Numbered from the stretch's first letter, positions 5,393 through 27,595 are shown. The stretch: DNA of 32,000 nt from Crocosphaera subtropica ATCC 51142 (GCF_000017845.1 NC_010546.1:1380001-1412000), one strand, 5' to 3'. Translations and numbers: made by a program. The notes: generated from the letters alone by a model not told the origin.

Positions 5393-6739
5393 TTAGCCTC
5401 TTGCTGTACTCAAAGAGGGTAAGAAACTAACAAGAGAGGGAAAAATAATGATTAATATTAAGACTAAAAGTTGTAGCAAGATGAAAGGAATAGCACCACG
5501 ATAAATCTCTTCTGTTTTTAATTCTGGGGGTGCCACTCCCCTCAGATAAAATAGAGCGAAGCCAAAGGGAGGCGTTAGGAAAGAGGTTTGCAAATTAGCA
5601 GCTAAAATAACCCCGTACCACATCAAATCTATCCCTAATGTTTCAGCAACTGGCTTAAAAATAGGGATAACAATAAAAGCAATTTCAAAAAAGTCAATAA
5701 AAAAGCCTAAAATAAAGACAGTTAACATACTGACAGCTAAAAATCCATATTGACCCCCTGGCAATGTGGTTAAAATTTCTAACATAAAGTGATCCCCATT
5801 AACGCCTCGAAAAACTAAACTAAAAGCAGTTGAGCCAAAGAGAATAAAGATCACCATTGTGCTAATGCGTAACGTAGCATCACAAACTTGTTTTAAAGTA
5901 AGCCAATTTAATTCCTTATTAAAAGCAGCTAAAATCATGGTTCCCAATGCACCCACTGCACCAGCTTCTGTGGGGGTTGCAATGCCAAAAAAGATACTTC
6001 CTAACACCAACAAAATCAATAATAGAGGAGGAAGCATGGCTTGAGTTACTTGTTTGATTAATGCTTTCTTACTAATATTTCGTTCTTCTGGAGGCAAAGC
6101 TGGAGCAACATCTGGGCGAATTAAAGAAACAATAATAACATGAAGAGCGAAGGCACTAGCCATCATTAAACCTGGAATGATGGAGCCAATAAATAAACTA
6201 CCCACAGGAATGCCTAATTGATCCGCTAATACCACTAAAACAATACTCGGAGGAATTAATTGTCCCAACGTCCCTGATGCAACGATCGCTCCAGATGCCA
6301 ATTCTTTGTTATAACCATAGCGCAACATAATCGGCAGAGAAATTAAGCCCATGGCCACCACTGTTGCAGCAACAACTCCCGTTGTTGCTGCTAACAAAGC
6401 CCCTACAATAACCACCGCTAACGCAAGGCCACCCCGTAACCTACCGAATAAAATGCCCATTGTCAGTAATAATTTTTCGGCAATACCTGTCTTTTCCAGC
6501 ATCGATCCTAAAAAGATAAAATAGGGAATAGCTAGCAGGGTATAGTTTCCCATAATGCCGAAAATTCGACTCGGTAAAGCACTTAAAAAAACGGGATCAA
6601 ATGCCCCTAAAATTACACCAATCAGAGCAAAAATAATCGAAACGCCACCCAAAGAAAAAGCAACAGGATAACCAAAAGACAGTAGAATTAACGCCCCAAC
6701 AAACATTAAAGGGCCTAACCAATCATAGGTTAAGGTCAT
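5393..6739 (-). CDS. dctM: TRAP transporter large permease (DctM family)
   Basis: 448 aa polytopic membrane protein. Typical DctM features such as 'GIPVGSLFIGSIIPGL' and 'LTPPFGFALFYLRGVAP'. Overlaps the upstream small-permease gene by 17 nt. Confidence 0.88.
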   Translation of the reverse strand: MTLTYDWLGPLMFVGALILLSFGYPVAFSLGGVSIIFALIGVILGAFDPVFLSALPSRIFGIMGNYTLLAIPYFIFLGSMLEKTGIAEKLLLTMGILFGRLRGGLALAVVIVGALLAATTGVVAATVVAMGLISLPIMLRYGYNKELASGAIVASGTLGQLIPPSIVLVVLADQLGIPVGSLFIGSIIPGLMMASAFALHVIIVSLIRPDVAPALPPEERNISKKALIKQVTQAMLPPLLLILLVLGSIFFGIATPTEAGAVGALGTMILAAFNKELNWLTLKQVCDATLRISTMVIFILFGSTAFSLVFRGVNGDHFMLEILTTLPGGQYGFLAVSMLTVFILGFFIDFFEIAFIVIPIFKPVAETLGIDLMWYGVILAANLQTSFLTPPFGFALFYLRGVAPPELKTEEIYRGAIPFILLQLLVLILIIIFPSLVSFLPSLSTARG

Positions 6740-7277
6740 GGGGTTCCTCCTGGGGGGTTAATTGACCGGTAAATATCGCCCAATTTTTAACCGCTTCAGC
6801 TAAGCCTTGAAAAATCAGTAAGATGTAACTAACAATAATCATAGATTTAATGGGATAACGGGGAAGTCCCCCCGGATCAGAAGACATTTCTAAAATCTTC
6901 CAAGAATTGATAATATTACCCCAAGAATAATAAATTACCATTAAACAAAAAGGAATTAAAAAGATAAAAACACCAATAAAATTAGCTAAAGCTTTTCGTT
7001 TTGGCGACCAATCTTTATAGAACAGATCAACTCTAACGTGTTCATCGTGTTTAAGGGTATAAGCAGCCCCTAAAAGAAAGACGAGATCAAACAAATACCA
7101 TTGCACTTCAATTAAGGCATTAGAAGTTAAATTTTGTCCAATCAATCTGCCCAAGTATCGCCCGACAACGTTCCAAACCCCTACAAAAATCATGAGGAGA
7201 ACTAACCAATAAGTGAATCTTCCTATCCATTCGTTGATAGTATCGATAATTTTGGCAATATTTAGTAGCTTTTGCAA
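6723..7277 (-). CDS. dctQ: TRAP transporter small permease (DctQ family)
   Basis: 184 aa protein with about 4 TM segments, immediately upstream of and overlapping dctM. TTG start (7277-7275) is preceded by GAGG about 6 nt upstream. Confidence 0.75.
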   Translation of the reverse strand: MQKLLNIAKIIDTINEWIGRFTYWLVLLMIFVGVWNVVGRYLGRLIGQNLTSNALIEVQWYLFDLVFLLGAAYTLKHDEHVRVDLFYKDWSPKRKALANFIGVFIFLIPFCLMVIYYSWGNIINSWKILEMSSDPGGLPRYPIKSMIIVSYILLIFQGLAEAVKNWAIFTGQLTPQEEPHDLNL

Positions 7278-7390: not shown

Positions 7391-8482
7391 TCAATTGATG
7401 GAAGCCAAAGCTTCTGATAAATAGTCAGCAGTTGACTCAACTAAAGGGATTGTATTTTCATATAACATTCGAGTCGGACCAATTAATCCCACACTTCCCA
7501 CTGGAATATGTCCTTGACAATAAGTTGCAGAAATTAAACTACAGGGACGCATTGATTCTAAAGGATTTTCTGTACCTATTTTTAGGGTAACTCGTCGATT
7601 ACATAATTCAGATTCAGGAATATTTAAAATTAAAGGTAAGAGTTTATCTTGCTCTTCTTCTAGTAAATGGAGTAACATTTGAACTTGTTGTAATTGAGAA
7701 AATTCAGGTTGTCGTAAGACTTCTGAAACTCCATGAATCATCATCTGAGTAGAAATTGACGTTTTTAAATAAGTTTGTAGTTGTTTGAGTAAACTTTTCA
7801 AAAAATCGGCGTAGTTGATAAAATCTTGATCTATTTTTTCCCAATCTAAATGATTTAATTCTAATAGGGATTTTCCTTTTAATTGACTGTTTAAGAAATT
7901 AGAAAGAATATGTAATTCTTCCTCTAACCAATCTTGCTCTTCTTCGTTATCTCTCACTAAGGAAGCAGGAATGTCAACTACAATTGATTGAGTTTGGTAA
8001 CTGTCAGTAACCACCAATAACATGGCTTGTTTTGATGACACTGGGATCAGTTGAAGATGACGTAATTGATTAGGAGAGGTTTGGGGTAAAGTAATTAAAG
8101 CAATATAACCACTTAAGTTAGCTAAAATTTGCGTTGCTCTTTGTAAAGCGGTTTCAAAATTATAGGTTTTTTGTTGGAGTTGTTGGCTTAAATTTTGTTT
8201 AATTTGTTTGGCTCTTTTTTGGTTAGGAGTCATTAAATTATCGACATAAATTCGATAGCCAAAATCAGAAGGAATACGGCCGGCTGAGGTATGGGGTTGA
8301 TACAAAAAACCTGCTTTTTCTAATTTTCCTAAAGTATTACGAATGGTCGCTGAACTAACCATAAAATCGTATTCTTTCACTAAAGTTTTTGAGCCAACTG
8401 GTTCTGCTGTAGCAATATAATGTTGTACGGTTGCCCGTAAAATGTCTTGATGACGTTGATTTAATAAAGTAGTAACGTTCAT
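7391..8482 (-). CDS. hrcA: Heat-inducible transcriptional repressor HrcA
   Basis: N-terminal winged-helix signature 'LNQRHQDILRATVQHYIATAEPVGSKTLVKEY...SSATIRNTLGKLEKAGFLYQPHTSAGRIPSDFGYRIYVD'. The ORF track starts at TTG 8500. I prefer the in-frame ATG at 8482 (MNVTTLLNQRHQ...). Confidence 0.9.
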   Translation of the reverse strand: MNVTTLLNQRHQDILRATVQHYIATAEPVGSKTLVKEYDFMVSSATIRNTLGKLEKAGFLYQPHTSAGRIPSDFGYRIYVDNLMTPNQKRAKQIKQNLSQQLQQKTYNFETALQRATQILANLSGYIALITLPQTSPNQLRHLQLIPVSSKQAMLLVVTDSYQTQSIVVDIPASLVRDNEEEQDWLEEELHILSNFLNSQLKGKSLLELNHLDWEKIDQDFINYADFLKSLLKQLQTYLKTSISTQMMIHGVSEVLRQPEFSQLQQVQMLLHLLEEEQDKLLPLILNIPESELCNRRVTLKIGTENPLESMRPCSLISATYCQGHIPVGSVGLIGPTRMLYENTIPLVESTADYLSEALASIN

Positions 8483-8548
8483 AATGGGTTGAGCGGTCAA
8501 TCTAAGACTTGATAAAATGGTTGTTAATATTAAAGCAGTTTTTAGTCA

Positions 8549-14709: not shown

Positions 14710-16122
14710 TTGAAACACAATAGACAAACATATACTTTTGACCGACGGCAAATCATCAGGCTCATCTTTCTGTCTGGAGTGATGATGGGTTTACCCCTAG
14801 CTTGTCATCGCTCAAAGACAAATATATCAAGCAAAAACCATAAGTTTGATTGGCAACAATTTGCAGGAGAAGAGATTTTCTTGTTACTCGATGATCATCC
14901 TTGGACAGAAGGACTCAAACCTTATGTATCAGATTTTGAGGCGTTAACCCATATTAAGACCAATATCAAAATAGTCCCTGAACCTGAATACTTTAAGGTG
15001 ATGGAATCTACGATTCAAGCTGAGACAGAAGAAGTTGATGCCTTTTTTTTACCGATGGATTCCACTGCCTATCGATTGTGGCGTAAAGGTCTATTGCACT
15101 CTTTAACCCCCTTGATTAATAATCCTCAATTAACCTTGTCGGATTATAATTTTTACGATTTTCCTGAGAACTTTCGGCTAGTGGGAATGTATCCCCCAGA
15201 AAGTCCTAATAGTGAATTATTTGGGATTCCTGCTACTTTTGAAGCCTATATTCTTTTTTATAATAAGATATTAATCAATCAATATTTGAATGGTCTTGTC
15301 CCCAAAACGATGACGGAACTGGTGGACGTTGCTCTCCAACTCAAGGAAATGGGAGAGGGCAAGTTTTTTGGGGCAGTTATGCGGGGAATCCCTTCAGATA
15401 CCATCATCGATACAGTTACGGGTATTCTCCTCAACCATTGGGGATCGCAGCCTTCTCCTTTACCCCATAACATCTGGTTCGATGGAGATTGGCAAAAACC
15501 ACGCTTAAGCGACCAACGAATTAGGGAAGGATTAAGAAACTATGCCAAACTAATGCAAGCAGGACCCCCTAATATTAAAGAGATGGATTGGCCTGAGGCT
15601 ACTCGTCTCTTCCGAGAAGGAAAAGCAGCCTTTTATATTGATGCGAGTCTGTTTGGACCAGACTTTGACAACCCAGAAGTATCGGACATAGCAGGAAATG
15701 TTGGTTATACGGTTTTGCCCCCTTCAGGAAAGACAAGTATGACTGGTCATTGGCTTTGGGGATTAGGGATTGCTCAAAAGTCAAAAAATCCCCAAGCGGC
15801 CTGGTTATTTATTCAATGGGCTACCAGTCAAGCCATAGAGCGCAAAATTAGCGTGGTTACTGGTGGCGCGCCTCGATTTTCATCTTGGGTTACACCTTCA
15901 GTGTACACAGAAGCCATGAATATTGATTATGCTTTAGCAGTGCAAACGGCCATGCGTACCTCCCGTCCGACGGTTGTTCTGCATTCAAATTGGAATCAAG
16001 TGGCTAAAGCCATTGCCACCACTATTCAAGAGATTTATGATGGTGCTAAGCAGGAGGTCGCTGTAGCTAAACTGCAAACCCAGATCCAGCAAATGATGGG
16101 TGGCTTCCCAGAGGATGATTAA
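14710..16122 (+). CDS. Periplasmic solute-binding protein, ABC family-1 (sugar-type), orphan
   Basis: 470 aa. N-terminus 'FDRRQIIRLIFLSGVMMGLPLAC' looks like a Tat-type signal with a lipobox-like Cys. 'AFYIDASLFGP' and 'GHWLWGLGIAQKSKNPQAAWLFIQWATS' are typical of SBP_bac_1 proteins. The TTG start directly follows an in-frame TAG. No ABC permease or ATPase gene is nearby. Confidence 0.8.
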   Translation: MKHNRQTYTFDRRQIIRLIFLSGVMMGLPLACHRSKTNISSKNHKFDWQQFAGEEIFLLLDDHPWTEGLKPYVSDFEALTHIKTNIKIVPEPEYFKVMESTIQAETEEVDAFFLPMDSTAYRLWRKGLLHSLTPLINNPQLTLSDYNFYDFPENFRLVGMYPPESPNSELFGIPATFEAYILFYNKILINQYLNGLVPKTMTELVDVALQLKEMGEGKFFGAVMRGIPSDTIIDTVTGILLNHWGSQPSPLPHNIWFDGDWQKPRLSDQRIREGLRNYAKLMQAGPPNIKEMDWPEATRLFREGKAAFYIDASLFGPDFDNPEVSDIAGNVGYTVLPPSGKTSMTGHWLWGLGIAQKSKNPQAAWLFIQWATSQAIERKISVVTGGAPRFSSWVTPSVYTEAMNIDYALAVQTAMRTSRPTVVLHSNWNQVAKAIATTIQEIYDGAKQEVAVAKLQTQIQQMMGGFPEDD

Positions 16123-19025
16123 TGTCACATAAACTGCACTGTTTGAGAACAATTCGGGGTCAACTGATGTTAGGATTTGGGGGAATTCTACTGTTGAACT
16201 TGATCAGTGCGTTTATTATTTATGGAACCTTACAACATTTTCGTTACCGCGCTCAAGCAACAATTGATTATGCCACTCGTGTGCGAGAATTAAGTCTAGA
16301 ACTAAAAAATAATTTTTTACTGGCTCGAAAAGCTGAAGATATTTTATTAGATAACTGGCAACTCAAAAAAGTAAGTCCAGCGATTCAAAACGCCATCAAT
16401 AACCAAGAAAATTATCTAAACCAAGCTCGTCAAAACCTTTCTGCTATCCAAACCCTACAGAAACAAAACTCAGATATTGAAGCAGAACTGACCATACTTC
16501 AATCCTTATTTACTAACTATGAATCTGCGTTTCAAGGAACGGCTAAGCGAATTATTGCTCACGATGAAGGATACCAACTCCATCAACAACTGCAAATTCT
16601 CATCAACCAGTTCGTTAATGACAGAACCCTGGCAAGAAATCGGACCATTGAGAGTCTTCTGTGGACAGCGATCGCAGAACAACAGAAATATTTTCAAACT
16701 AACAAACAAGGTTCTCCTACGGATTTACGGGCTAGTCTCGACCAACTAGAAACTGCTTTAAAAGCCCATCAAAGCAAGACACCGATTCACACCTTAGCCC
16801 AGGACTATACGACGACCCTGGATACTCTTTTATTATTAGAGCAACAAGTTTTATTTAATCAGATTGTTGCAGAAAATATTAATAAGGAAATTGATCACAT
16901 TATCGAGGTGATTGGCCAAAAGAGTAAAACCCAAGCAGAGCAAGCCCGTTTAGGCTTAATACAAACCGCTAATTACACTCGTATCGGTCTATTAATCACA
17001 GTTATTACGGCATTAGCCCTGACCTTGTGGGTAAGTTTATGGCTTGGAAAAACCATTGTTCAGCCGTTAACCCAATTAACAGACGTTTCAGAACACATTG
17101 CCAAGGGGTCTTTAGAGGAAACATTGAACTTTTCGGCCAGTAATGAATTTGGCATTGTGGCCACTGCCCTCAATAAAATGCTCATTCAATTGAGAGAAAC
17201 CTTAGCAGACCTTGAAGACAGGGTGAGAGAAAGAACCCAGGCATTAGAGGCTAAAACCGAATCTCTCGAAATTACTCTTAAAAAATTGCGTTTCAGTCAA
17301 GCTAATTATCATCAACTGATTAATAATCTTCAGGCCGGGGTGATTATCTATGACCCTAGGGGTAACATGATGATGGCTAACTTAGCAGCTTCAGAATTAT
17401 TGGACATATCCTCTGAAAGTTTATCTCTCTATTCTTCTCCAGAAGCAAGGGTAACCTTCGTTGACGAGTCAGGAGCAACACTTCCCCCACAAGAGCATCC
17501 TTGCCAACAAGTTTTGACCACCCAAGTCCCATTACACAATTATGTCATGGGTATTCACCGACAACGGCCCCTAGACTCTATTTGGACGTTAGTGAATGCG
17601 TTTCCTGCTTTTGATGATCAGAACCATTTAACTCAGGTAGTGGTACTCCTTCTTGATATCACTGATCGTAAGTTAGCTGAGGAACAGTTGCGCTATCGTG
17701 CGCTCCATGACGCTTTAACAGGGTTGCCTAACCGTACCCTCCTCACAGAACGGTTAGACCATGCTATCCAACGGGTTAAACGTTACCCTGACAGTCTCTT
17801 TGCGGTGTTATTTATTGATTTAGACCGTTTCAAAGTGATTAACGATAGTTTAGGCCATTTAGTCGGTGATCAACTGCTCATATACATTGCTAATACCCTA
17901 AAACGCCATGTTCGTAGTAGTGATACGGTGGCACGACTGGGAGGGGATGAATTTGTCATTCTTCTGGAGAATTTGACCAGTCCCCATGAAGTGGTACAGG
18001 TGATTGAACGAATTGAAAAAGATATTAAAAAGCCCATTCAGTTGATGAATAAAACTCTTTTTACCTCGGCCAGTATTGGCATTGCGTTGAGCAGTCCAGA
18101 GTATGGTACTGGAGAAGATATTTTGCGGGATGCTGATAACGCTATGTATCGGGCTAAAGGTAATAATCTCACAAGTTACGAACTGTTTAATGTGGAAATG
18201 CGTCAGACAATGTTAGAAGTCTTTGAGCTTGAAACGAGTTTGCGACAAGCATTAGAACAGCAACAATTTATCTTGCATTATCAACCGATTGTTTCTGCTA
18301 CGTCTTTGGAATTATTGGGGTTTGAAGCTTTAGTGCGTTGGGTACATCCTGAAAAGGGGTTGATTTCTCCAGGAAAGTTTATTCCGTTGGCCGAAGAAAC
18401 AGGATTAATTATTCCCTTAAGTGAATGGATTTTCCAAGAAGCTTGTAGTCAGATGGCACAGTGGTGCGCTGATTTTCGGATGGCTAGTTCCCTAAAAATG
18501 AGTATTAATATTGCTGCTTATCATTTTCAATCCCCTCAATTTTTGGAAAAAATAGACCAAATTTTAACTGAAACTCAGTTACTGGGAAAGAATCTGAAAT
18601 TAGAGATAACAGAAAGTTTGCTGATTAAAAATACCGATAGATTCCTGTCTCTTGTGCCTCAGTTACAACAACGGCAAATTGAAATTAGTCTTGATGATTT
18701 TGGGACAGGTTATTCTTCTTTGAATTACTTAAAACGGTTTCCCATTAATACTCTTAAAATTGATAAATCTTTCGTTGATGGTCTTGATTATCAGAAAAAT
18801 CAAGCAGATGTTAGTATTATTGAGGCTATTATCCATATTGCTCAATCCCTAGGCATGGATGTCGTGGCTGAAGGGGTTGAAACAGATCGGCAACGTCAAC
18901 AGTTACAACAGTTGGGATGCGAAGCAATTCAAGGATATTTAATGTCTCCTCCTTTAACTTCTGAGAAGGCTAGAGAATTTATTAATCGTCAGTTATCAGT
19001 AACCAGTGATCAGTCTCATACTTAA
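16122..19025 (+). CDS. Membrane sensor protein with periplasmic helical domain, HAMP, PAS, GGDEF and EAL domains
   Basis: 967 aa. TM1 at about aa 17-36, a helical periplasmic region of about 250 aa, TM2 at about aa 285-308, then HAMP. PAS ('LQAGVIIYDPRGNMMMANLAASELLD'). Intact GGDEF (aa 607-611, nt 17940-17954) with upstream 'DALTGLPNR'. Intact EAL (aa 735-737, nt 18324-18332) plus 'DDFGTGYSSL', 'KIDKSF', 'EGVET', 'QGYL'. The ATG overlaps the SBP stop (TAATG). Confidence 0.92.
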   Translation: MSHKLHCLRTIRGQLMLGFGGILLLNLISAFIIYGTLQHFRYRAQATIDYATRVRELSLELKNNFLLARKAEDILLDNWQLKKVSPAIQNAINNQENYLNQARQNLSAIQTLQKQNSDIEAELTILQSLFTNYESAFQGTAKRIIAHDEGYQLHQQLQILINQFVNDRTLARNRTIESLLWTAIAEQQKYFQTNKQGSPTDLRASLDQLETALKAHQSKTPIHTLAQDYTTTLDTLLLLEQQVLFNQIVAENINKEIDHIIEVIGQKSKTQAEQARLGLIQTANYTRIGLLITVITALALTLWVSLWLGKTIVQPLTQLTDVSEHIAKGSLEETLNFSASNEFGIVATALNKMLIQLRETLADLEDRVRERTQALEAKTESLEITLKKLRFSQANYHQLINNLQAGVIIYDPRGNMMMANLAASELLDISSESLSLYSSPEARVTFVDESGATLPPQEHPCQQVLTTQVPLHNYVMGIHRQRPLDSIWTLVNAFPAFDDQNHLTQVVVLLLDITDRKLAEEQLRYRALHDALTGLPNRTLLTERLDHAIQRVKRYPDSLFAVLFIDLDRFKVINDSLGHLVGDQLLIYIANTLKRHVRSSDTVARLGGDEFVILLENLTSPHEVVQVIERIEKDIKKPIQLMNKTLFTSASIGIALSSPEYGTGEDILRDADNAMYRAKGNNLTSYELFNVEMRQTMLEVFELETSLRQALEQQQFILHYQPIVSATSLELLGFEALVRWVHPEKGLISPGKFIPLAEETGLIIPLSEWIFQEACSQMAQWCADFRMASSLKMSINIAAYHFQSPQFLEKIDQILTETQLLGKNLKLEITESLLIKNTDRFLSLVPQLQQRQIEISLDDFGTGYSSLNYLKRFPINTLKIDKSFVDGLDYQKNQADVSIIEAIIHIAQSLGMDVVAEGVETDRQRQQLQQLGCEAIQGYLMSPPLTSEKAREFINRQLSVTSDQSHT
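18990..19017 (+). repeat. STRR-like heptamer tandem repeat (CAGTNNN x4)
   Basis: cagttat cagtaac cagtgat cagtctc. Overlaps the last 12 codons of the GGDEF-EAL ORF (tail ...RQLSVTSDQSHT*). Confidence 0.6.
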
Positions 19026-19133: not shown

Positions 19134-21329
19134 TTAATTAATCCCCAAATCAATATGTTGATCTTTAAAACTAATTACTCTTTCCCCAATTATAACTTGA
19201 GAATCTAAGTGATTATTGATAATTTTTAGGTTGGGAATCTTATTTTTTTCAACTGTCATCACCACAAAAAAGTCTCCTGTTCCTGTTGCAATAATTCTTT
19301 GATTATCTTTTTCATAGTTTAAGTTGATCGTTTCAGGAGTAATAAAAGTTCCTTTCATCGTGACATCCCGATCTCGTTTAATTAGAAAAGTATTATTTTC
19401 AATAGTGACATTTCCTTCAGTATTCATGACCCAAGTATGATTATTTTTATGATCATCAAATTGATCAACAATAGCAAATAAACCAGGAACCCCTGAAATA
19501 TTAGAGTAATCAACAGCAAAGGATCTTAACCAATCTTTAGCTTGTAAACTAACAACACCTGAACCATCTTTTTTATCTTTCAAATAAATAGTTGTCATTG
19601 TTATTGCATTAGGATTTTCTTGAATAATAATATTTTCATTTTCCGGTTTATTATTACTTTCCCCTGCGATCGCCCAATTTTCCCCTAGTCCCCAAATGCG
19701 AAAACTTCCAGCATCGGGGAATGACCAAGACTTCGTTAAATATTCTCGTTTTCCATAGATACTCGCCACAAAATCATTTTTGTCTTTCCATTGATTACGA
19801 AAAGAATAAAATCCTTTTTGTTCATCTACTAAAACGTTATCAAAAATCTGGGAAGGATGTTTAATAACTAAATGATTGGGATAATTAATAAATAAAAAAA
19901 CACCATCTAAAATATTCTTAATACCAAAACTTTGGTTTCCATTTTCTCCCCAATAATGATCAAATCCCCACATAATACCAGGCAAAAACTTAAGGGGAAC
20001 TAATCCCATTCCCATGGCAAATAATGATCCCCCTGAATAATATCGATGTCTTCCATAACTAGGAATCGGATAACTATTCTTTCTTGGAACAATTCGCATT
20101 AAATACTGAGGTAATAACCAAGCTAAATTAGAATTTTCAGTGGCAAAATTTTTTCCTTTCACATGATAGTAACCTGTAAAAAAAGGAAACAAGGTTAAGA
20201 TAAATGGTTCAGTGGTATAGTGATCCCCTTCCGTACCAAACCCCTTGTCACCCATCGCTGTTTCTAGATAGCGAATCATGTTGCGCTTAGCAATGGTTAA
20301 AAGTTGTTCAATATTGATATCTGGGGAAAAATAGCCTTCTGGTTCTTTTAAAATGGCTAATGCAGCCAATCCTGCAGCCCCTCTTGCTCTGGCATTCCAA
20401 TTACTCCAGGCTGTGGGGTTCCAACCTCTATCTGGGGTTCCTTCGATTAATAATTGTGTTTGTTGAGCCAGCCAATTAGAGACAAGAATGCGATTATTAT
20501 TCTCCCAATAAGCGTAACATAAATCATAAGCGATCGCTATTCCTGTGACCACTGGGGACAGTTCAAATAAGCGACGATAGGAGGTATTAATCGCCTTTTC
20601 TACCACTGTCCAAGCCTGAGCAGCTTGTTTGGGTTTTTCTTTAATTAAAGCGAGAAAACATTGTCCTGCTGCGTGATATCCTGCATTGGGAACATAGCCA
20701 TCATAAATAACAGGTTGATTGAGTGTTTTTTCTAATTTATTAAATATTTTTTTGCCAATTTTTGTTGTTATTTTTTGACGTAATTCTGGCACCCTTGTCT
20801 CTCGAAATAGTAACCGAGGATGTTCTTGAGGGTGAATCGGTCGATGATCTATCAAAGGTTGAGGGTATAGTGGATTGATGGTTCCAGAAACTTTTCCTTG
20901 TAATACTTTATTGTTAAATTTTCCTTGATAATTTCCGATTAAAAGATTATTATTTTTTTTAATTAATTCAATTTCATAATTAGCCTTTCCTGACAATGAT
21001 AACCAAGGGTCCCGATTGATGAGTAAATCAACGTCTAAAATCCACTGATTATGGGATTGATTGATAGTAACAGTTCCTTGATGTTCTGCTTGATTAAACT
21101 CAGGAGCAAACCCCCAAATCTCAGAAGTACAATGATTATTTTCACAAATTACATCTAGGGTAATATCTTGATAATCAATTTCGTTATTAGAGTTTCTCCA
21201 AAGGGCTTTTTCTAGAACGATGCTAACTTTTCCTGACAAAGAATGAAAGGAGAAAGTGGGGGTATAAACTCCCAACCCTACCCAATAAATTGTCATGATT
21301 ATTATGATAAATAATCGAGATTTAATCAT
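19134..21329 (-). CDS. Heparinase II/III / alginate-lyase-like (alpha/alpha toroid + beta-sandwich) protein with N-terminal signal or anchor
   Basis: 731 aa. Hydrophobic N-terminus 'LFIIIIMTIYWVGLGVY', then a beta-rich region of about 130 aa. 'HPRLLFRETRVPELRQKI', 'SNWNARARGAAGLAALAI' and 'GTEGDHYTTEP' resemble heparinase II/III-DUF4962 signatures recalled from memory. The ATG overlaps the upstream stop (ATGA). Confidence 0.55.
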   Translation of the reverse strand: MIKSRLFIIIIMTIYWVGLGVYTPTFSFHSLSGKVSIVLEKALWRNSNNEIDYQDITLDVICENNHCTSEIWGFAPEFNQAEHQGTVTINQSHNQWILDVDLLINRDPWLSLSGKANYEIELIKKNNNLLIGNYQGKFNNKVLQGKVSGTINPLYPQPLIDHRPIHPQEHPRLLFRETRVPELRQKITTKIGKKIFNKLEKTLNQPVIYDGYVPNAGYHAAGQCFLALIKEKPKQAAQAWTVVEKAINTSYRRLFELSPVVTGIAIAYDLCYAYWENNNRILVSNWLAQQTQLLIEGTPDRGWNPTAWSNWNARARGAAGLAALAILKEPEGYFSPDINIEQLLTIAKRNMIRYLETAMGDKGFGTEGDHYTTEPFILTLFPFFTGYYHVKGKNFATENSNLAWLLPQYLMRIVPRKNSYPIPSYGRHRYYSGGSLFAMGMGLVPLKFLPGIMWGFDHYWGENGNQSFGIKNILDGVFLFINYPNHLVIKHPSQIFDNVLVDEQKGFYSFRNQWKDKNDFVASIYGKREYLTKSWSFPDAGSFRIWGLGENWAIAGESNNKPENENIIIQENPNAITMTTIYLKDKKDGSGVVSLQAKDWLRSFAVDYSNISGVPGLFAIVDQFDDHKNNHTWVMNTEGNVTIENNTFLIKRDRDVTMKGTFITPETINLNYEKDNQRIIATGTGDFFVVMTVEKNKIPNLKIINNHLDSQVIIGERVISFKDQHIDLGIN

Positions 21330-23515
21330 GAAACGAAAATAAAATGATGACTGTTTAAATCTAAATTGGTTGCATTTTTTACAATACCAATTAATTCATC
21401 TTCCATGCCAGCAACTTTGAGAAAAATTCCTTGATCATTAGCTTTAAAGGGAGAAGAACCCAGATAGTAGTTATTAGCTGTGCCATGTAATTGAATTATA
21501 TCTTGAGCCATATCAAAATCAACAATTTCTGCATAATCTTGTTGTCCATAGTTATCATAAAACGATTCACTTTCATTTCCTAGAGCATAAATCTTTCCAT
21601 TGATAGTCTGAGTTTGAGAATGACTCAATCCCGTTAAAGGATCAACAGCAGATCCATTGAAGTTACCATTTCCTTCTATAGCTAAGAAATTGATATTTTC
21701 AGTCGTATGATTGGTTTCACTGTCGTTGCTAGTATCTTCTTCAACCATGATTTGAACATTGCCATTAGTGAGGTTTTTATATCTTAATCCTGAAGGATCG
21801 GGACCATCAAAAGTGGCAATATTGCCTAAGAATTTAGGAGCATTGCTGAAATGATTGCCAAAATCAATACTATGCCAGTTATGGGTAACCTTATCTCCAG
21901 TATTACCTGCTATAAACCCCTTACCATCCCAATTTCCTTGACCGGGAGAAATCGCTAACCAAGCAATAGTTTCTGAACCATGTCCAGTGAACTTAAATGC
22001 TTCTTCTTCTTCTAAAGCCACTTCAAATCCATGATTAGTGGCATTCTTTTGACGGGTTCGCACAAAGGTTGGATCATTATCGGTTTGAACTTGAGTTAAA
22101 ACCACAGGGGTATTAGTAAAGTTGTGATTGAAGTTAATCGTTTCCCAAGTTGAGGTGGTGGTTGCATCTGTTGTGACGTTGCCTACCTCGATAATTGTGC
22201 CATCAGACAGTTCCCATCGTCCCTGTTCAACCACTAAAAAACTAAACCTTTCTGTTGTATGGTAACCATTATGAGATTTACCCCTAATTAAAGTTGTCTC
22301 TTGAAGTTGCACGGTAAAGCGATCGCTTTGAATATCGGTAATTCTTATGGTCGAAGGATCTGGACCATTATAGGATAAGGGTTGAGCAAAAATAACAGGG
22401 TTAATAAAGTTATGATTCAGGGAAATGGTTTGACTTTCATGGTTTAAATTAGTAATTTGTCCAATTTCGGCAATGACAGCATTATTATCAATAGGAGTGT
22501 CTTCAACTGCGTCTTTGAGTTCAATTGATGATGTGTCGATAGCTTCTGAAGAAGCTGACATTTCTAAGATGGCGTTCCCTAATTTTTCGATGTTTAATAA
22601 TTTCCCTTCGTATTGGGGTTGATTAACAACATTGTCCCCTTGTGCAAGTAACTCTCTAATCCCCAGTTTAATAACTTCCCCTGTGGTTTCATCAATAATG
22701 CTGTTTAGGGGTAATTTGTATCCCAACTCTTGCACCGCTAACTGTTGCGCTACGGCGATCGCTCCAGTCACATGGGGAGCAGACATACTGGTTCCTGATA
22801 GGGTCGTCGTTCCTCCATTATTATTAGCTGCTGTAATACCCACCCCAGGAGCAAAAACGTCAGTTAAATCAGGATGATGTTGGGAAAAACTAGCAATTTC
22901 ACCTTTATTATTAACAGCAGAAACCGCTAAAGAATTGATACTTGCTGCTGGATAGGAAACGCCATCTTCTCCTGTATTACCCGCAGCAGAAACCACAATC
23001 ACATCATTATTAACTAACGCTTGTAACTCATCATCAATGATATTGCCAAAAAACCAGGGAGATTGATAGTTCCGTCCATTACTAAGGGACATATTCACAC
23101 TAGCAATATTATAGGTATCATGGTTATCCACCACCCATTGTAAAGCCTGTTCAATATCATAAAGATTGGCTTTATTATTATTATCAAAAACTTTGAGAGC
23201 AATAATGTTAACCCCAGGTGCTATCCCTGTATAGGTCGGATCGCTTGAAGCAGCAATGCTGGCCACATGACTTCCATGCCTATTAGGATCACTAGCATTA
23301 TTATCATCATTACTGGTAGGATCGCTAAAATTTTCTAATGGAGTAGAAGCAAAATCATAATGGTAAACAATCCGATCCGCTACATTATTCTTATCAAGAT
23401 CAGGACCAAAAAAAGGATGGTTTAAATCTATTCCCGTGTCTATAATGACGACAGCATAGCCAGATCCATCAATACGCTTGCCGTTATTATCGAAAAAAAC
23501 ATCATAATTAGTCAT
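21326..23515 (-). CDS. S8 family (subtilisin-like) serine peptidase with three tandem lectin-like repeats and a cyanobacterial C-terminal module
   Basis: Catalytic triad motifs: 'VVIIDTGID' (Asp26), 'HGSHVAS' (His80), 'AAGN' (Asn180), 'GTSMSAPHVTG' (Ser243). Three repeats of about 90 aa lie at aa ~350-615. The C-terminus is 'DIIQLHGTANNYYLGSSPF...GIFL...DELIGIVKN'. No signal peptide or propeptide. Confidence 0.88.
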   Translation of the reverse strand: MTNYDVFFDNNGKRIDGSGYAVVIIDTGIDLNHPFFGPDLDKNNVADRIVYHYDFASTPLENFSDPTSNDDNNASDPNRHGSHVASIAASSDPTYTGIAPGVNIIALKVFDNNNKANLYDIEQALQWVVDNHDTYNIASVNMSLSNGRNYQSPWFFGNIIDDELQALVNNDVIVVSAAGNTGEDGVSYPAASINSLAVSAVNNKGEIASFSQHHPDLTDVFAPGVGITAANNNGGTTTLSGTSMSAPHVTGAIAVAQQLAVQELGYKLPLNSIIDETTGEVIKLGIRELLAQGDNVVNQPQYEGKLLNIEKLGNAILEMSASSEAIDTSSIELKDAVEDTPIDNNAVIAEIGQITNLNHESQTISLNHNFINPVIFAQPLSYNGPDPSTIRITDIQSDRFTVQLQETTLIRGKSHNGYHTTERFSFLVVEQGRWELSDGTIIEVGNVTTDATTTSTWETINFNHNFTNTPVVLTQVQTDNDPTFVRTRQKNATNHGFEVALEEEEAFKFTGHGSETIAWLAISPGQGNWDGKGFIAGNTGDKVTHNWHSIDFGNHFSNAPKFLGNIATFDGPDPSGLRYKNLTNGNVQIMVEEDTSNDSETNHTTENINFLAIEGNGNFNGSAVDPLTGLSHSQTQTINGKIYALGNESESFYDNYGQQDYAEIVDFDMAQDIIQLHGTANNYYLGSSPFKANDQGIFLKVAGMEDELIGIVKNATNLDLNSHHFIFVS

Positions 23516-25792: not shown

Positions 25793-27595
25793 TTAATCAC
25801 AAAGATATCTTTGATATCCATAACCATCGATATATGGATATTTTTTTGTATCAATTTCACAATTATTTAATTCAACTTCTGCATTAAAGTTGACTGTCCA
25901 AACTTCTAGGGGTTTAGCTAAATTATTAACTGCTTCTTGGAGATTTTTAGTTGATTGCGGATCATTATTTTTTGTTTGATTAATCAATAAGAAAGAAATA
26001 TCATCTAATTCATTTTGATTATTTTGTTGAAATACACCTTCTGCCTCCTTTAACTCTAATGCTATTCCCATCATTTCTCCTATTTGCACCAAACTTTTAT
26101 GGGTAGTAGCAATCAGAACAGGTTGAGATGAATGTTCTTTAATCACTGAGATAAATTGTTCGGGACGATAATATTTTTGATACCCTAAATTAACAAGAAC
26201 TGTGACGGCACCGATAAACCCCATAAACCAAACAGCATAAAAAGCTAATTGACCATTACTGTTTAATTTATCATACAATTTTCTGAGTAAAATTAGGGGA
26301 TTAATTGTTTCTTTTGCTTGCAATTGTCTATTTTCTGGTTTAATTTCATGCCATAAAATCCCTAAACTTGCTCCCACGAGAACGATAACAGCAGGAAAGT
26401 AAGTAAAACTATAACGGGCTGCACGGGTTAAGTCAACGCCGATCACATAAGTAATGATAAGAAATAAAGCAATAACTCCACTGATAAATGTCATTAAAAT
26501 TAATAGGGAAAGACGAAATTGATTGAACTGTAATCCCTTTTTAATCCCTCGAATACTATAAGGGATGAACCAAATAAAGAATAATAGTAGGAGCAAACCA
26601 GAAAGAATAACAATAGCAATAGAATCAGATTCAACTGGTAATAAAGAAATCATAGGAACCCAAACCGCTAATAATTGGAATGGGGGACTAATGGCATACA
26701 AAATATGACTCAAAGGATGAATCCAAGTGATCATATTGTTACCGTAACCTTGAGGAATTACTAAAAACATCCAAACTAACCCTGTAGTTGATGTTCCTAA
26801 AATAACGGCGAAAACACGGATTAAATTTCGTTTATTGAATTGTAAAAAATTGTGTTTAAATTTAGCGTAAATAAGAATAGCTAAAGTGATAGCTTCTGCC
26901 ATGAGGGTTAAAACAAAAAAATAATGAACCGATAACCCAAAACTATTAACCAATATCCAGGTAATAACTAACCATAAAGGAATAATTGATTGTTCATAAA
27001 GATGTCTAACGACAATAATTAAACAGAGTAAAGAAGCAATAACAAATAAAATAGCTAATGTATAGTGACGGGCTTCTTGTGCCAAAAAAATCCCAAAAGG
27101 AGAAACCGCCATTAAAGCTGCGCTAATTTGTCCCACTAAACGAGAACGAAAGGCAATTTTTCCTAAAAAATAGACCCCCGGAATGGATAAAATACCTAAA
27201 AAAGCCGGAAGCGATCGCATAACCCAAACATCTGCATATTCCCCCATATTAGGAAATAATTTAACCCACAAATGAACTAAAACAAAATACAAAGGAGGAT
27301 GATTATCTTCCTGTAACAACAAAGAAACAACATCCTTTATCCCTGCGTCCCCATTAATACGAAGCGGTTGCAAAAGGGTATCCAATGAAATAACCTGATT
27401 CAGAGGAACTGAGCGAAAATCATTTCCTAAACTAAACACCATTGTGGCAAATTCGTCAGTCCAAGGGGGTTTAGCGGCCAAATTTGTAAAGCGGAGAAGA
27501 CCACCAATAATTACCCACACACTTAATAATACCCAATCATTGACCTGGGATAACTGGTTTATCCACTGTTTAGAAGACGATTGAAGTTTTAACAC
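25793..27595 (-). CDS. GT-C fold glycosyltransferase (family 39 / ArnT-PMT-like) with C-terminal soluble domain
   Basis: 600 aa with about 11-13 TM segments. The first extracytoplasmic loop carries the acidic 'PPWTDEFAT' motif, followed by 'DNHPPLYFVLVHLW', as in ArnT/PMT-type enzymes. GTG start at 27595-27593. Confidence 0.7.
   Translation of the reverse strand: MLKLQSSSKQWINQLSQVNDWVLLSVWVIIGGLLRFTNLAAKPPWTDEFATMVFSLGNDFRSVPLNQVISLDTLLQPLRINGDAGIKDVVSLLLQEDNHPPLYFVLVHLWVKLFPNMGEYADVWVMRSLPAFLGILSIPGVYFLGKIAFRSRLVGQISAALMAVSPFGIFLAQEARHYTLAILFVIASLLCLIIVVRHLYEQSIIPLWLVITWILVNSFGLSVHYFFVLTLMAEAITLAILIYAKFKHNFLQFNKRNLIRVFAVILGTSTTGLVWMFLVIPQGYGNNMITWIHPLSHILYAISPPFQLLAVWVPMISLLPVESDSIAIVILSGLLLLLFFIWFIPYSIRGIKKGLQFNQFRLSLLILMTFISGVIALFLIITYVIGVDLTRAARYSFTYFPAVIVLVGASLGILWHEIKPENRQLQAKETINPLILLRKLYDKLNSNGQLAFYAVWFMGFIGAVTVLVNLGYQKYYRPEQFISVIKEHSSQPVLIATTHKSLVQIGEMMGIALELKEAEGVFQQNNQNELDDISFLLINQTKNNDPQSTKNLQEAVNNLAKPLEVWTVNFNAEVELNNCEIDTKKYPYIDGYGYQRYLCD

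Follow-up and report, generated by a model that had tools for sequence, protein, structure and literature searches.

The locus considered here raises the question of what a sugar-type solute-binding protein (SBP) does when its gene overlaps that of a membrane-bound c-di-GMP enzyme. The window, i.e. the whole stretch of 32,000 nucleotides of Crocosphaera subtropica ATCC 51142 DNA that was analyzed, carries the two genes in tandem on the + strand. We propose, with a probability of roughly 0.65, that together they encode a two-piece periplasmic chemosensor setting c-di-GMP levels.

The upstream gene (14710..16122, + strand), obtained by ORF scan with a TTG start, encodes a CUT1/MalE-like SBP of 470 aa and is cce_1397, as assigned by position. 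Its product matched SBP_bac_1 (PF01547; 2e-23, 84.2 bits vs. a cutoff of 26) and SBP_bac_8 (PF13416; 5e-14, 53.1 bits vs. a cutoff of 27) in Pfam. The AlphaFold model (pLDDT 79.8, pTM 0.81) had as its top Foldseek matches the CUT1 sugar SBPs 5iai, 4rya, 1eu8, and 5yse, with E-values of 1e-20 to 1e-23 and target-normalised TM scores of 0.69-0.82, and the modeled fold is the two-lobe, MalE-like one. The closest solved relatives share 17-20 % identity and have sorbitol, trehalose/maltose, or sophoro-oligosaccharides as ligands. A preliminary description of this DNA had named a carbohydrate-type SBP, which agrees with the SBP_bac_1 score above the gathering value and the modeled MalE-like fold. 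The protein is 100 % identical to a Crocosphaera subtropica protein whose annotation begins at M25; the database annotation reads 'ABC transporter substrate-binding protein'.

Residues 1-32 (14710..14805, + strand) form a twin-arginine lipoprotein signal peptide by sequence, ending ...FDRRQIIRLIFLSGVMMGLPLA-C32, with the pattern DRRQII...LPLAC32 (twin-arginine motif, h-region, and lipobox Cys). The Tat/lipoprotein-like leader noted previously is therefore of the twin-arginine plus Cys type, and it recurs in relatives: RRx[F/L] followed by an h-region and Cys was found in all 26 evaluable sensor-coupled orthologues versus 4 of 54 ABC-coupled relatives. The leader consensus of the sensor-coupled clade is RRRF[ML]QL...C, and C32 is near-invariant. 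By leader type, the members of this clade are predicted Tat-exported lipoproteins.

The downstream gene, cce_1398 (16122..19025, + strand), was delimited by its ORF and Pfam domains and encodes a 967-aa membrane sensor and predicted bifunctional c-di-GMP enzyme, named 'hypothetical protein cce_1398' in the database. Hydropathy scanning placed TM1 at residues 15-33 (16164..16220, + strand; position kept in 20 homologues) and TM2 at residues 288-306 (16983..17039, + strand), and hydropathy and AlphaFold modeling delimited between them an all-helical, HBM-like periplasmic sensor domain (residues 34-287; 16221..16982, + strand). These segments and the modeled helices bear out the earlier view of a two-TM protein with a helical periplasmic domain of about 250 aa. 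TM2 is followed on the same strand by HAMP (residues 307-359; 17040..17198; PF00672, 3e-10), PAS (residues 395-513; 17304..17660; PF00989, 9.5e-5, barely over the gathering score), a GGDEF diguanylate cyclase domain (residues 527-681; 17700..18164; Pfam 1e-48), and an EAL phosphodiesterase domain (residues 706-944; 18237..18953; Pfam 4e-75). The GGDEF domain holds the I-site RSSD598-601 and GGDEF607-611, while the EAL domain holds EALVR735, N795, EITE828, DDFGTGYSS858, KID879, EGVE917, and QG937. Across 24 orthologues the GGDEF and I-site motifs were kept in 23 and the EAL-domain motifs in 22-23. Both domains thus have complete catalytic motifs, as first supposed, with no degeneracy of catalytic residues seen here or in 22-23 of the 24 orthologues, and are predicted to be competent in c-di-GMP synthesis and degradation (DGC/PDE).

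The two ORFs share a single base within TAATG, the last A of the SBP stop (TAA, 16120-16122) being the first base of the 967-aa ORF's ATG (16122-16124), and this confirms the stop/start overlap originally reported. A GAGGA (16111-16115) lies 6 nt 5' of the ATG, and the junction (16111..16124, + strand) is, by its sequence, a predicted translational-coupling junction. Between 14250 and 19250, no terminator-like sites were found on the + strand and promoter-like matches did not rise above chance level.

In order to establish how widely the arrangement is conserved, 27 GTDB cyanobacterial species-representative genomes carrying the SBP (56-80 % identity) were surveyed. A homologue of the sensor N-terminal domain starts at, or a few nt from, the SBP stop in 27/27 species, and in 25/27 the two genes share 1 or 4 nt at their junction (TAATG/TGATG or ATGA). 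The SBP and sensor are the only genes conserved across these loci, and the arrangement extends to Nodosilinea, Leptolyngbya iicbica, and Leptolyngbya sp. BL0902, with a different neighborhood in each. Because adjacency is universal, overlap nearly so, and other neighbors unconserved, the arrangement is far beyond chance. At two loci (L032 and L033) the SBP, periplasmic domain, HAMP, and TAATG are all retained and HisKA-HATPase replaces PAS-GGDEF-EAL; since the output there is a histidine kinase, it is the SBP and the periplasmic domain that form the conserved unit across cyanobacteria.

The preliminary description had also noted an SBP orphaned from transport genes. No ABC permease or ATPase genes were found in the window, and none of the 27 cyanobacterial loci has a permease/ATPase homologue within 8 kb of the SBP. 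The window does contain a TRAP dctQM pair (5393-7277), an unrelated transporter class. Among non-cyanobacterial relatives of the SBP (41-55 % identity), two BPD_transp_1 permeases follow the gene in 53/53 loci, with a MalK-like ATPase in 26. It is thus only distant homologues, from other phyla, that adjoin ABC permeases, and SBPs of the cyanobacterial type are not normally encoded beside ABC genes. The sensor-coupled SBPs formed one bipartition in a neighbor-joining tree. Since the genes of all 53 non-cyanobacterial relatives belong to ordinary ABC importer operons, the cyanobacterial clade appears to derive from a transport SBP, although the trees are unrooted and only the breadth of distribution speaks to which way the partner changed.

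The periplasmic domain of cce_1398 (AlphaFold pLDDT 83.6) is modeled as seven helices, and neither a Pfam model nor a PDB sequence match was found for it. Its best Foldseek fold match was the HBM domain of McpS (PDB 2yfa, 2yfb), a chemoreceptor that binds organic acids directly, with TM scores of 0.45-0.51 over ~250 columns and a probability of 0.99-1.0 but an E-value of only 0.07-0.2; no match fell below 1e-3. TorS did not rank in the Foldseek top 50 and had no detectable sequence similarity to the domain, and the Pfam HBM, TorS-sensor, and 4HB profiles did not match it. Among members of the domain family, weak 4HB_MCP_1 matches were obtained in 26/41 (best 1.2e-5) and TarH matches in three. 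The domain is accordingly described as HBM-like, a weak fold assignment drawn from the model. The family is small, comprising only 80 clusters among 1.84e9 representatives by phmmer, and HAMP was present in all 54 members scanned, with varied outputs. A motif, FLLARxxE...W (residues 65-79 of cce_1398), and Y133 are invariant in the PotD-partnered and CUT1-partnered subfamilies.

Outside the cyanobacterial clade, phmmer with the N-terminal domain retrieved no GGDEF-EAL protein, and the family is otherwise encoded behind PotD-like SBPs: where the loci of other members included enough upstream DNA, the immediately preceding gene was co-oriented and encoded a PotD/PotF-like SBP in 21/23. BLAST detected no similarity between the cyanobacterial SBP and these PotD-like partners. 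It is plausible, though somewhat less likely than not, that the HBM-like family serves specifically for the docking of free SBPs and can change partner class, and that one cyanobacterial lineage swapped a PotD-type SBP for a CUT1 SBP that had been taken over from an ABC importer and redirected to export as a Tat lipoprotein.

Because the transporter-less SBP is always encoded with the c-di-GMP enzyme/sensor, it is most likely the detachable sensor of cce_1398, and this putative co-sensor role is well supported by comparative genomics. Three other readings were weighed against it. It is unlikely that the SBP is dual-use, feeding an ABC importer whose genes lie at another genomic site while reporting its occupancy to the sensor. 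Dual-use SBPs are on record (PMC8050422), cf. GltB for GtrS and MBP for Tar, and the SBP may still serve a distant transporter because its core is near-unchanged, with only 3 clade-discriminating conserved positions between sensor-coupled and ABC-coupled SBPs and 110 identically conserved in both. However, the lack of nearby permease/ATPase homologues at every cyanobacterial locus stands against dual use, and the clade-specific Tat lipoprotein leader and strict stop/start overlap argue for a dedicated partner. Very improbable, and already disfavored, is a plain transport SBP whose adjacency is coincidental or merely co-regulated, with the sensor answering something else. The source annotation and the importer-type fold and family would suit such a protein, but adjacency and overlap are kept over 27 species in which other neighbors are unshared, the input pair is also joined to a histidine-kinase output, and members of the sensor-domain family generally go with an SBP.

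Alternatively, the helical domain could itself be the receptor, through FLLARxxE...W and Y133, with the SBP as an accessory modulator or second input and two signals integrated. Direct small-ligand binding is common in HBM and 4HB domains, the McpS-LBD was crystallised with malate or succinate, and the motif is invariant in both subfamilies. We nevertheless consider this quite unlikely, as conservation of the motif alongside two unrelated SBP classes is just as compatible with a structural role or with part of a generic docking surface, and the upstream SBP gene in 27/27 and 21/23 loci indicates that the family needs its SBP.

As ligand of the SBP, a released oligosaccharide had been put forward on the strength of the glycan-synthesis and protease/lyase genes in the window, and this candidate is not supported, given that these glycosyltransferase and protease/lyase neighbors are common only to three Crocosphaera-group loci. 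Genes near the ABC-coupled relatives encode dehydrogenases, PLP enzymes, RidA, and sometimes FrlB/FrlD-like proteins, and no glycoside hydrolase occurs among the recurrent neighbor families profiled there, which together suggest a small solute of the sugar, polyol, or amino-sugar-like kind.

In the proposed mechanism, the SBP would leave the cytoplasm by Tat and be tethered by its lipid to the periplasmic side of the cytoplasmic membrane, where it would bind a small carbohydrate-like solute and, depending on ligand state, dock on the HBM-like domain of a sensor dimer in the manner of TorT with TorS. The signal would pass through TM2, HAMP, and PAS to shift the cyclase/phosphodiesterase balance, as with NspS on MbaA, and the cyclase side may be subject to RxxD product inhibition. 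The stop/start overlap would hold SBP and sensor near 1:1; transport SBPs are made in excess. If the partner swap described above is also true, cce_1398 would be the first bifunctional c-di-GMP enzyme gated by a carbohydrate-type SBP, and cyanobacterial c-di-GMP signaling would have a chemical (non-light) input.

The pair is real and uncharacterised, a literature search having returned no paper on cce_1397/1398, in keeping with the original remark that no characterised cyanobacterial example was known, while its overall design is already known from systems of the NspS-MbaA/TorT-TorS kind. In NspS-MbaA (Vibrio cholerae; also Sinorhizobium meliloti) a free SBP adjoins a GGDEF-EAL enzyme and sets its polarity (PMC8050422, PMC8079147), and the SBP gene likewise lies beside one for a TM/periplasmic domain/TM/HAMP/GGDEF/EAL protein. 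NspS belongs to the PotD-like class (SBP_bac_8), as do the partners of the distant sensor-domain relatives found here, whereas cce_1397 encodes a 470-aa CUT1 sugar-type SBP. Further differences of cce_1398 from MbaA are its inserted PAS, its cyanobacterial host, and a partner with a Tat lipoprotein leader. The sensor domains of MbaA and LuxQ are dCache-like (PMC8050422), in the case of MbaA by published listing, whereas that of cce_1398 is modeled as an HBM-like helical bundle. The analogy to NspS-MbaA and TorT-TorS drawn at the outset thus holds as a likeness of design, reinforced by the otherwise PotD-like partners of the domain family, but, on the modeled fold, does not extend to homology of the sensor domain with those of MbaA or LuxQ.

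In ScrB-ScrC (Vibrio parahaemolyticus) an SBP controls a GGDEF-EAL enzyme switching between synthesis and degradation (PMC8050422); ScrB is SBP_bac_3 and the ScrC sensor domain dCache-like, in contrast to the CUT1 SBP and HBM-like domain here. GltB, which stimulates the membrane sensor GtrS in Pseudomonas aeruginosa (PMC8050422), is, like cce_1397, a sugar-binding protein of SBP_bac_1 type, but it lies beside its own transporter genes and is dual-use, whereas the SBP here is orphaned from transport genes, and GtrS has a histidine kinase output where c-di-GMP turnover is predicted for cce_1398. In TorT-TorS (E. coli, Vibrio parahaemolyticus) the docking site for the SBP is a bimodular helical HBM-like periplasmic domain in a dimeric membrane sensor (PMC8050422). 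TorT is Peripla_BP_1 and TorS a hybrid histidine kinase, as opposed to a CUT1 SBP and GGDEF-EAL; by analogy, this system would nonetheless offer the best available model for how the input half of the Crocosphaera pair works.

The solute-binding protein (SBP) and sensor genes of the window are each 100% identical at the protein level to a database entry of Crocosphaera subtropica ATCC 51142 (formerly Cyanothece), the sensor being listed as cce_1398, "hypothetical protein", and neither cce_1397 nor cce_1398 turned up in any paper in a literature search. The SBP gene (14710..16122, + strand), read from a TTG start, encodes 470 aa with SBP_bac_1 and SBP_bac_8 matches, and the sensor gene (16122..19025, + strand) encodes 967 aa from an ATG start. 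The TAA stop of the former and the ATG of the latter have one base in common, and GAGGA lies 6 nt 5' of that ATG. Two hydrophobic segments of the sensor (residues 15-33 and 288-306) flank approximately 250 residues, the second being followed by HAMP, PAS, GGDEF, and EAL domains. The catalytic set was complete (GGDEF motif, RSSD I-site, and all EAL-domain residues), and since the motifs were kept in 22-23 of 24 sensor orthologues, the exceptions being fragmented or frameshifted assemblies, selection acts on both the GGDEF and EAL domains. Readings of the sensor as a pseudogene or degenerate enzyme were ruled out by the intact motifs, here and in orthologues. ABC permease or ATPase genes were absent from the window, and the preliminary description was thus borne out regarding the two genes, their overlap, the domains, the intact motifs, and the lack of ABC genes. 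A promoter and terminator scan of the locus yielded nothing above chance.

In order to establish the distribution of the pair, a scan was performed with an alignment of SBP homologues using one genome per GTDB species. The resulting 80 loci split cleanly into 27 cyanobacterial (sensor-coupled) and 53 non-cyanobacterial (ABC-coupled, i.e. with the SBP in an importer operon) loci. All 27 cyanobacterial SBPs shared 56-80% identity with the window SBP, and their hosts included Crocosphaera, Nodosilinea, Leptolyngbya, Phormidium, Halomicronema, Tildeniella, Spirulina, Thainema, and others. The SBP/GGDEF-EAL adjacency and overlap, whose conservation the preliminary description had raised, recurred at the level of the sensor domain: a homologue of the sensor N-terminal domain (32-83% identical) starts at the SBP stop in 27 of 27 loci, with a TAATG/TGATG (1-nt overlap) or ATGA (4-nt overlap) junction in 25. 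The 53 non-cyanobacterial SBPs (41-55% identical), from Chloroflexota, Alpha- and Gammaproteobacteria, Hydrogenedentota, and Trueperaceae, were each followed by two BPD_transp_1 permeases, the first permease match starting approximately 50-300 nt past the SBP match. Clustering of ORFs across the 27 cyanobacterial loci identified the SBP and sensor as the only genes common to all. Independent look-ups returned the same overlapping pair in unrelated surroundings in Nodosilinea, Leptolyngbya iicbica, and Leptolyngbya sp. BL0902, a genetically tractable strain in which the pair (within CP046155.1:3139183-3152616) overlaps by 4 nt and adjoins psaA and psaB. The pair is a real, conserved, and uncharacterised two-gene sensor, a variant within SBP-dependent receptors and not a categorically new system.

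The sensor genes of three loci look interrupted or truncated, which may represent assembly errors or decay: the reading frame is broken in the MAGs L019 and L045, and in L025 (Leptolyngbya sp. FACHB-60) it reaches a stop at 234 aa, with approximately 760 nt absent.

According to the neighbor-joining tree, 26 sensor-coupled SBPs formed a single bipartition against 50 ABC-coupled SBPs. The alignment contained 110 positions with the same conserved residue in both groups and three that discriminate between them. These patterns suggest that the cyanobacterial SBPs derive from an importer component that was co-opted, and that their ligand is probably still a small solute identical or similar to that of the ABC-coupled relatives. 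One clear change is specific to the sensor-coupled clade, namely a predicted Tat lipoprotein signal: in all 26 evaluable sensor-coupled SBPs the leader combines RRx[F/L] with a hydrophobic segment and a Cys, and an RR-like motif was found in only 4 of 54 ABC-coupled relatives. In the window SBP (leader at 14710-14805) this motif is present only if translation begins at TTG 14710. The start given in the database (M25; 446 aa) cuts off the twin-arginine motif, and it is probably wrong because TTG 14710 is the sole in-frame start upstream of the motif, which is kept in all orthologues.

The preliminary description labeled the SBP carbohydrate-type, rightly so given a model with a standard MalE-like fold and closest solved relatives (17-20% identity) that bind sorbitol, trehalose/maltose, or sophoro-oligosaccharides. 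Its proposal of a released oligosaccharide as ligand is not supported, as the neighbours behind it are not conserved beyond the genus and the content of the ABC-coupled operons disagrees. Those relatives reside in whole importer operons with a MalK-like ATPase (26 loci), a glycerol-1-phosphate-dehydrogenase-like Fe-ADH_2 gene (45 loci), a short-chain dehydrogenase (32 loci), and also class-III aminotransferase or SelA-like PLP enzymes, RidA, and GntR or ROK regulators; FrlB-like and FrlD-like genes were present in a few Chloroflexota. Glycoside hydrolases were absent among the recurrent neighbour families profiled in these operons. In the Nodosilinea/Phormidium group, six loci (L016, L022, L023, L028, L029, and L031) encode a GH63/MGH1-like (mannosylglycerate-hydrolase-like) protein of 935 aa approximately 250 nt upstream of the SBP on the same strand, a weak lead that may hint at glycosyl-glycerol or glycosyl-glycerate-type solutes.

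Three glycosyltransferase-like genes lie 5' of the pair, and a 731-aa protein of no known family and an S8 subtilase are encoded 3'. The glycosyltransferase and 731-aa neighbours recur in only three of the 27 loci, all of the Crocosphaera group, and the glycan and protease genes were discarded as a pointer to the ligand since their conservation is confined to that group. The 731-aa protein and subtilase genes (19134-23515, - strand) adjoin the pair in L010-L012 alone and overlap by 4 nt; the former product has no Pfam family and a weak HepB-like NCBIfam match (3.6e-5), and the subtilase has an H-type lectin match. Elsewhere the window contains the cyanobacterial marker genes cpcT/cpeT, petB, and petD, and a GTG-initiated ORF of 600 aa (25793-27595, - strand) without a Pfam or NCBIfam match. 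No gene for a DctP binding protein adjoins the TRAP transporter genes dctQ and dctM (5393-7277, - strand), whose neighbour is hrcA (7391-8500); this is a second transporter/SBP mismatch in the window.

In two cyanobacterial loci, L032 and the Thainema locus L033, the gene for the 470-aa SBP still overlaps the sensor gene at TAATG, and the sensor has the same periplasmic domain followed by HAMP. Because their sensors end in HisKA-HATPase_c and not PAS-GGDEF-EAL, the conserved unit is the input (SBP plus periplasmic domain), with the cytoplasmic output swapped in evolution. Joint retention of both extracytoplasmic parts would be expected if they work together. An OmpR-type response regulator with an Hpt domain is encoded 3' of the sensor in seven loci. 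Downstream of the sensor, a fused ABC exporter gene (ABC_membrane and ABC_tran) on the opposite strand converges on it in eight of the 27 loci, across several genera (L014, L017, L018, L019, L021, L026, L032, and L033), and such a gene is also present in L090.

Searches with the periplasmic domain itself and with a profile of its family gave no sequence match in Pfam or the PDB. Its AlphaFold model, based on 22 homologues (pLDDT 83.6, pTM 0.71), was all-helical, with long first and last helices and five shorter ones between. Foldseek returned no strong match, the best TM-scores (0.45-0.51) being to the HBM domain of McpS, and weak 4HB_MCP_1 matches occurred in 26 of 41 family members; with modest confidence, the domain is predicted to be HBM-like. 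A TorS-like fold was not confirmed by the Foldseek comparison. Homology to the sensor domains of MbaA or LuxQ was rejected, as those are dCache-like.

A word-indexed search with the 313-aa N-terminus gave only two matches, and exhaustive phmmer across 1.84 billion representative proteins was used in its place, yielding only 80 domain-family clusters, with some members from Anaerolineales and Ardenticatenales. The 54 long clusters all contained HAMP, accompanied by GAF (38), histidine-kinase domains (22), receiver domains (14), or an MCP signalling domain (1); GGDEF-EAL output was found in two, both cyanobacterial. Loci of 26 distant members were recovered, two by contig look-up and 24 from metagenomes by a degenerate DNA pattern encoding FLLARQxExxF.xxW, all 24 verified by the family HMM. 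These members are 18-42% (median 28%) identical to the cyanobacterial clade. An SBP gene of approximately 367 aa lies directly 5' on the same strand in 21 of the 23 distant loci with enough upstream sequence, its product being PotD/PotF-like (E = 5e-42 to 4gl0 and 2e-36 to PotD 1pot), which suggests that pairing with an SBP is the norm in this domain family. In two family members, L096 and L112, a response-regulator/kinase gene takes the place of the SBP, and the sequenced DNA of these loci contains no PotD-like gene. Since CUT1-partnered (sugar-type) sensor domains formed one bipartition against the PotD-partnered domains, a single receptor-domain family appears to work with two unrelated SBP classes, the sugar-type partner belonging to the cyanobacterial clade.

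Taken together, a Tat-exported, lipid-anchored SBP would bind a small carbohydrate-like solute and dock on the HBM-like domain of a dimeric sensor; the change would be relayed by TM2, HAMP, and PAS, shifting the balance between GGDEF and EAL, and translational coupling would keep SBP and sensor near 1:1. The 110 positions shared with ABC-coupled relatives leave room for dual use, in which the SBP also serves a transporter encoded elsewhere, but the clade-specific leader and the strict overlap with the sensor gene make this unlikely. Residues F65, L66, A68, R69, E72, W79, Y133, and F137 (65-79, window 16314-16358; 133-137, window 16518-16532) are (near-)invariant across the PotD- and CUT1-partnered subfamilies and may form a docking surface, have a structural role, or contact ligand directly. 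The last option underlies a similarly unlikely alternative, in which the invariant FLLARxxE...W and Y133 motif lets the helical domain bind ligand on its own and the SBP supplies a second input; the near-universal SBP gene directly upstream indicates that the family does not dispense with the SBP. Mere co-regulation of SBP and sensor is the least likely explanation, given the joint retention of both parts under an exchanged output.

Characterised c-di-GMP inputs in cyanobacteria are mainly light, and the pair represents a candidate chemical input. Furthermore, a Pfam-less sensor-domain family nearly always encoded behind an SBP gene offers a sequence signature for predicting SBP-dependent receptors, and its use of two unrelated SBP classes, with transporter-derived relatives extant, makes co-receptor evolution from a transport protein testable. 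Indirect sensing via free SBPs is thought to be widespread with few systems identified (PMC8050422), and a census of c-di-GMP sensory inputs lists sugar input via PTS only (PMC8846402). Two SBP-stimulated GGDEF-EAL enzymes have been reviewed, MbaA with NspS (SBP_bac_8) and ScrC with ScrB (SBP_bac_3), both with dCache-like sensor domains, as have the HBM-like TorS, paired with TorT, and GtrS, whose partner GltB is a glucose binder of the SBP_bac_1 class (PMC8050422). What appears new here is a predicted docking-domain family that lacks annotation, together with an SBP whose recruitment from transport can still be traced. The window pair resembles MbaA in output and logic, TorS in sensor-domain class, and GltB in binding-protein class, but belongs by sequence to the family of none of them.
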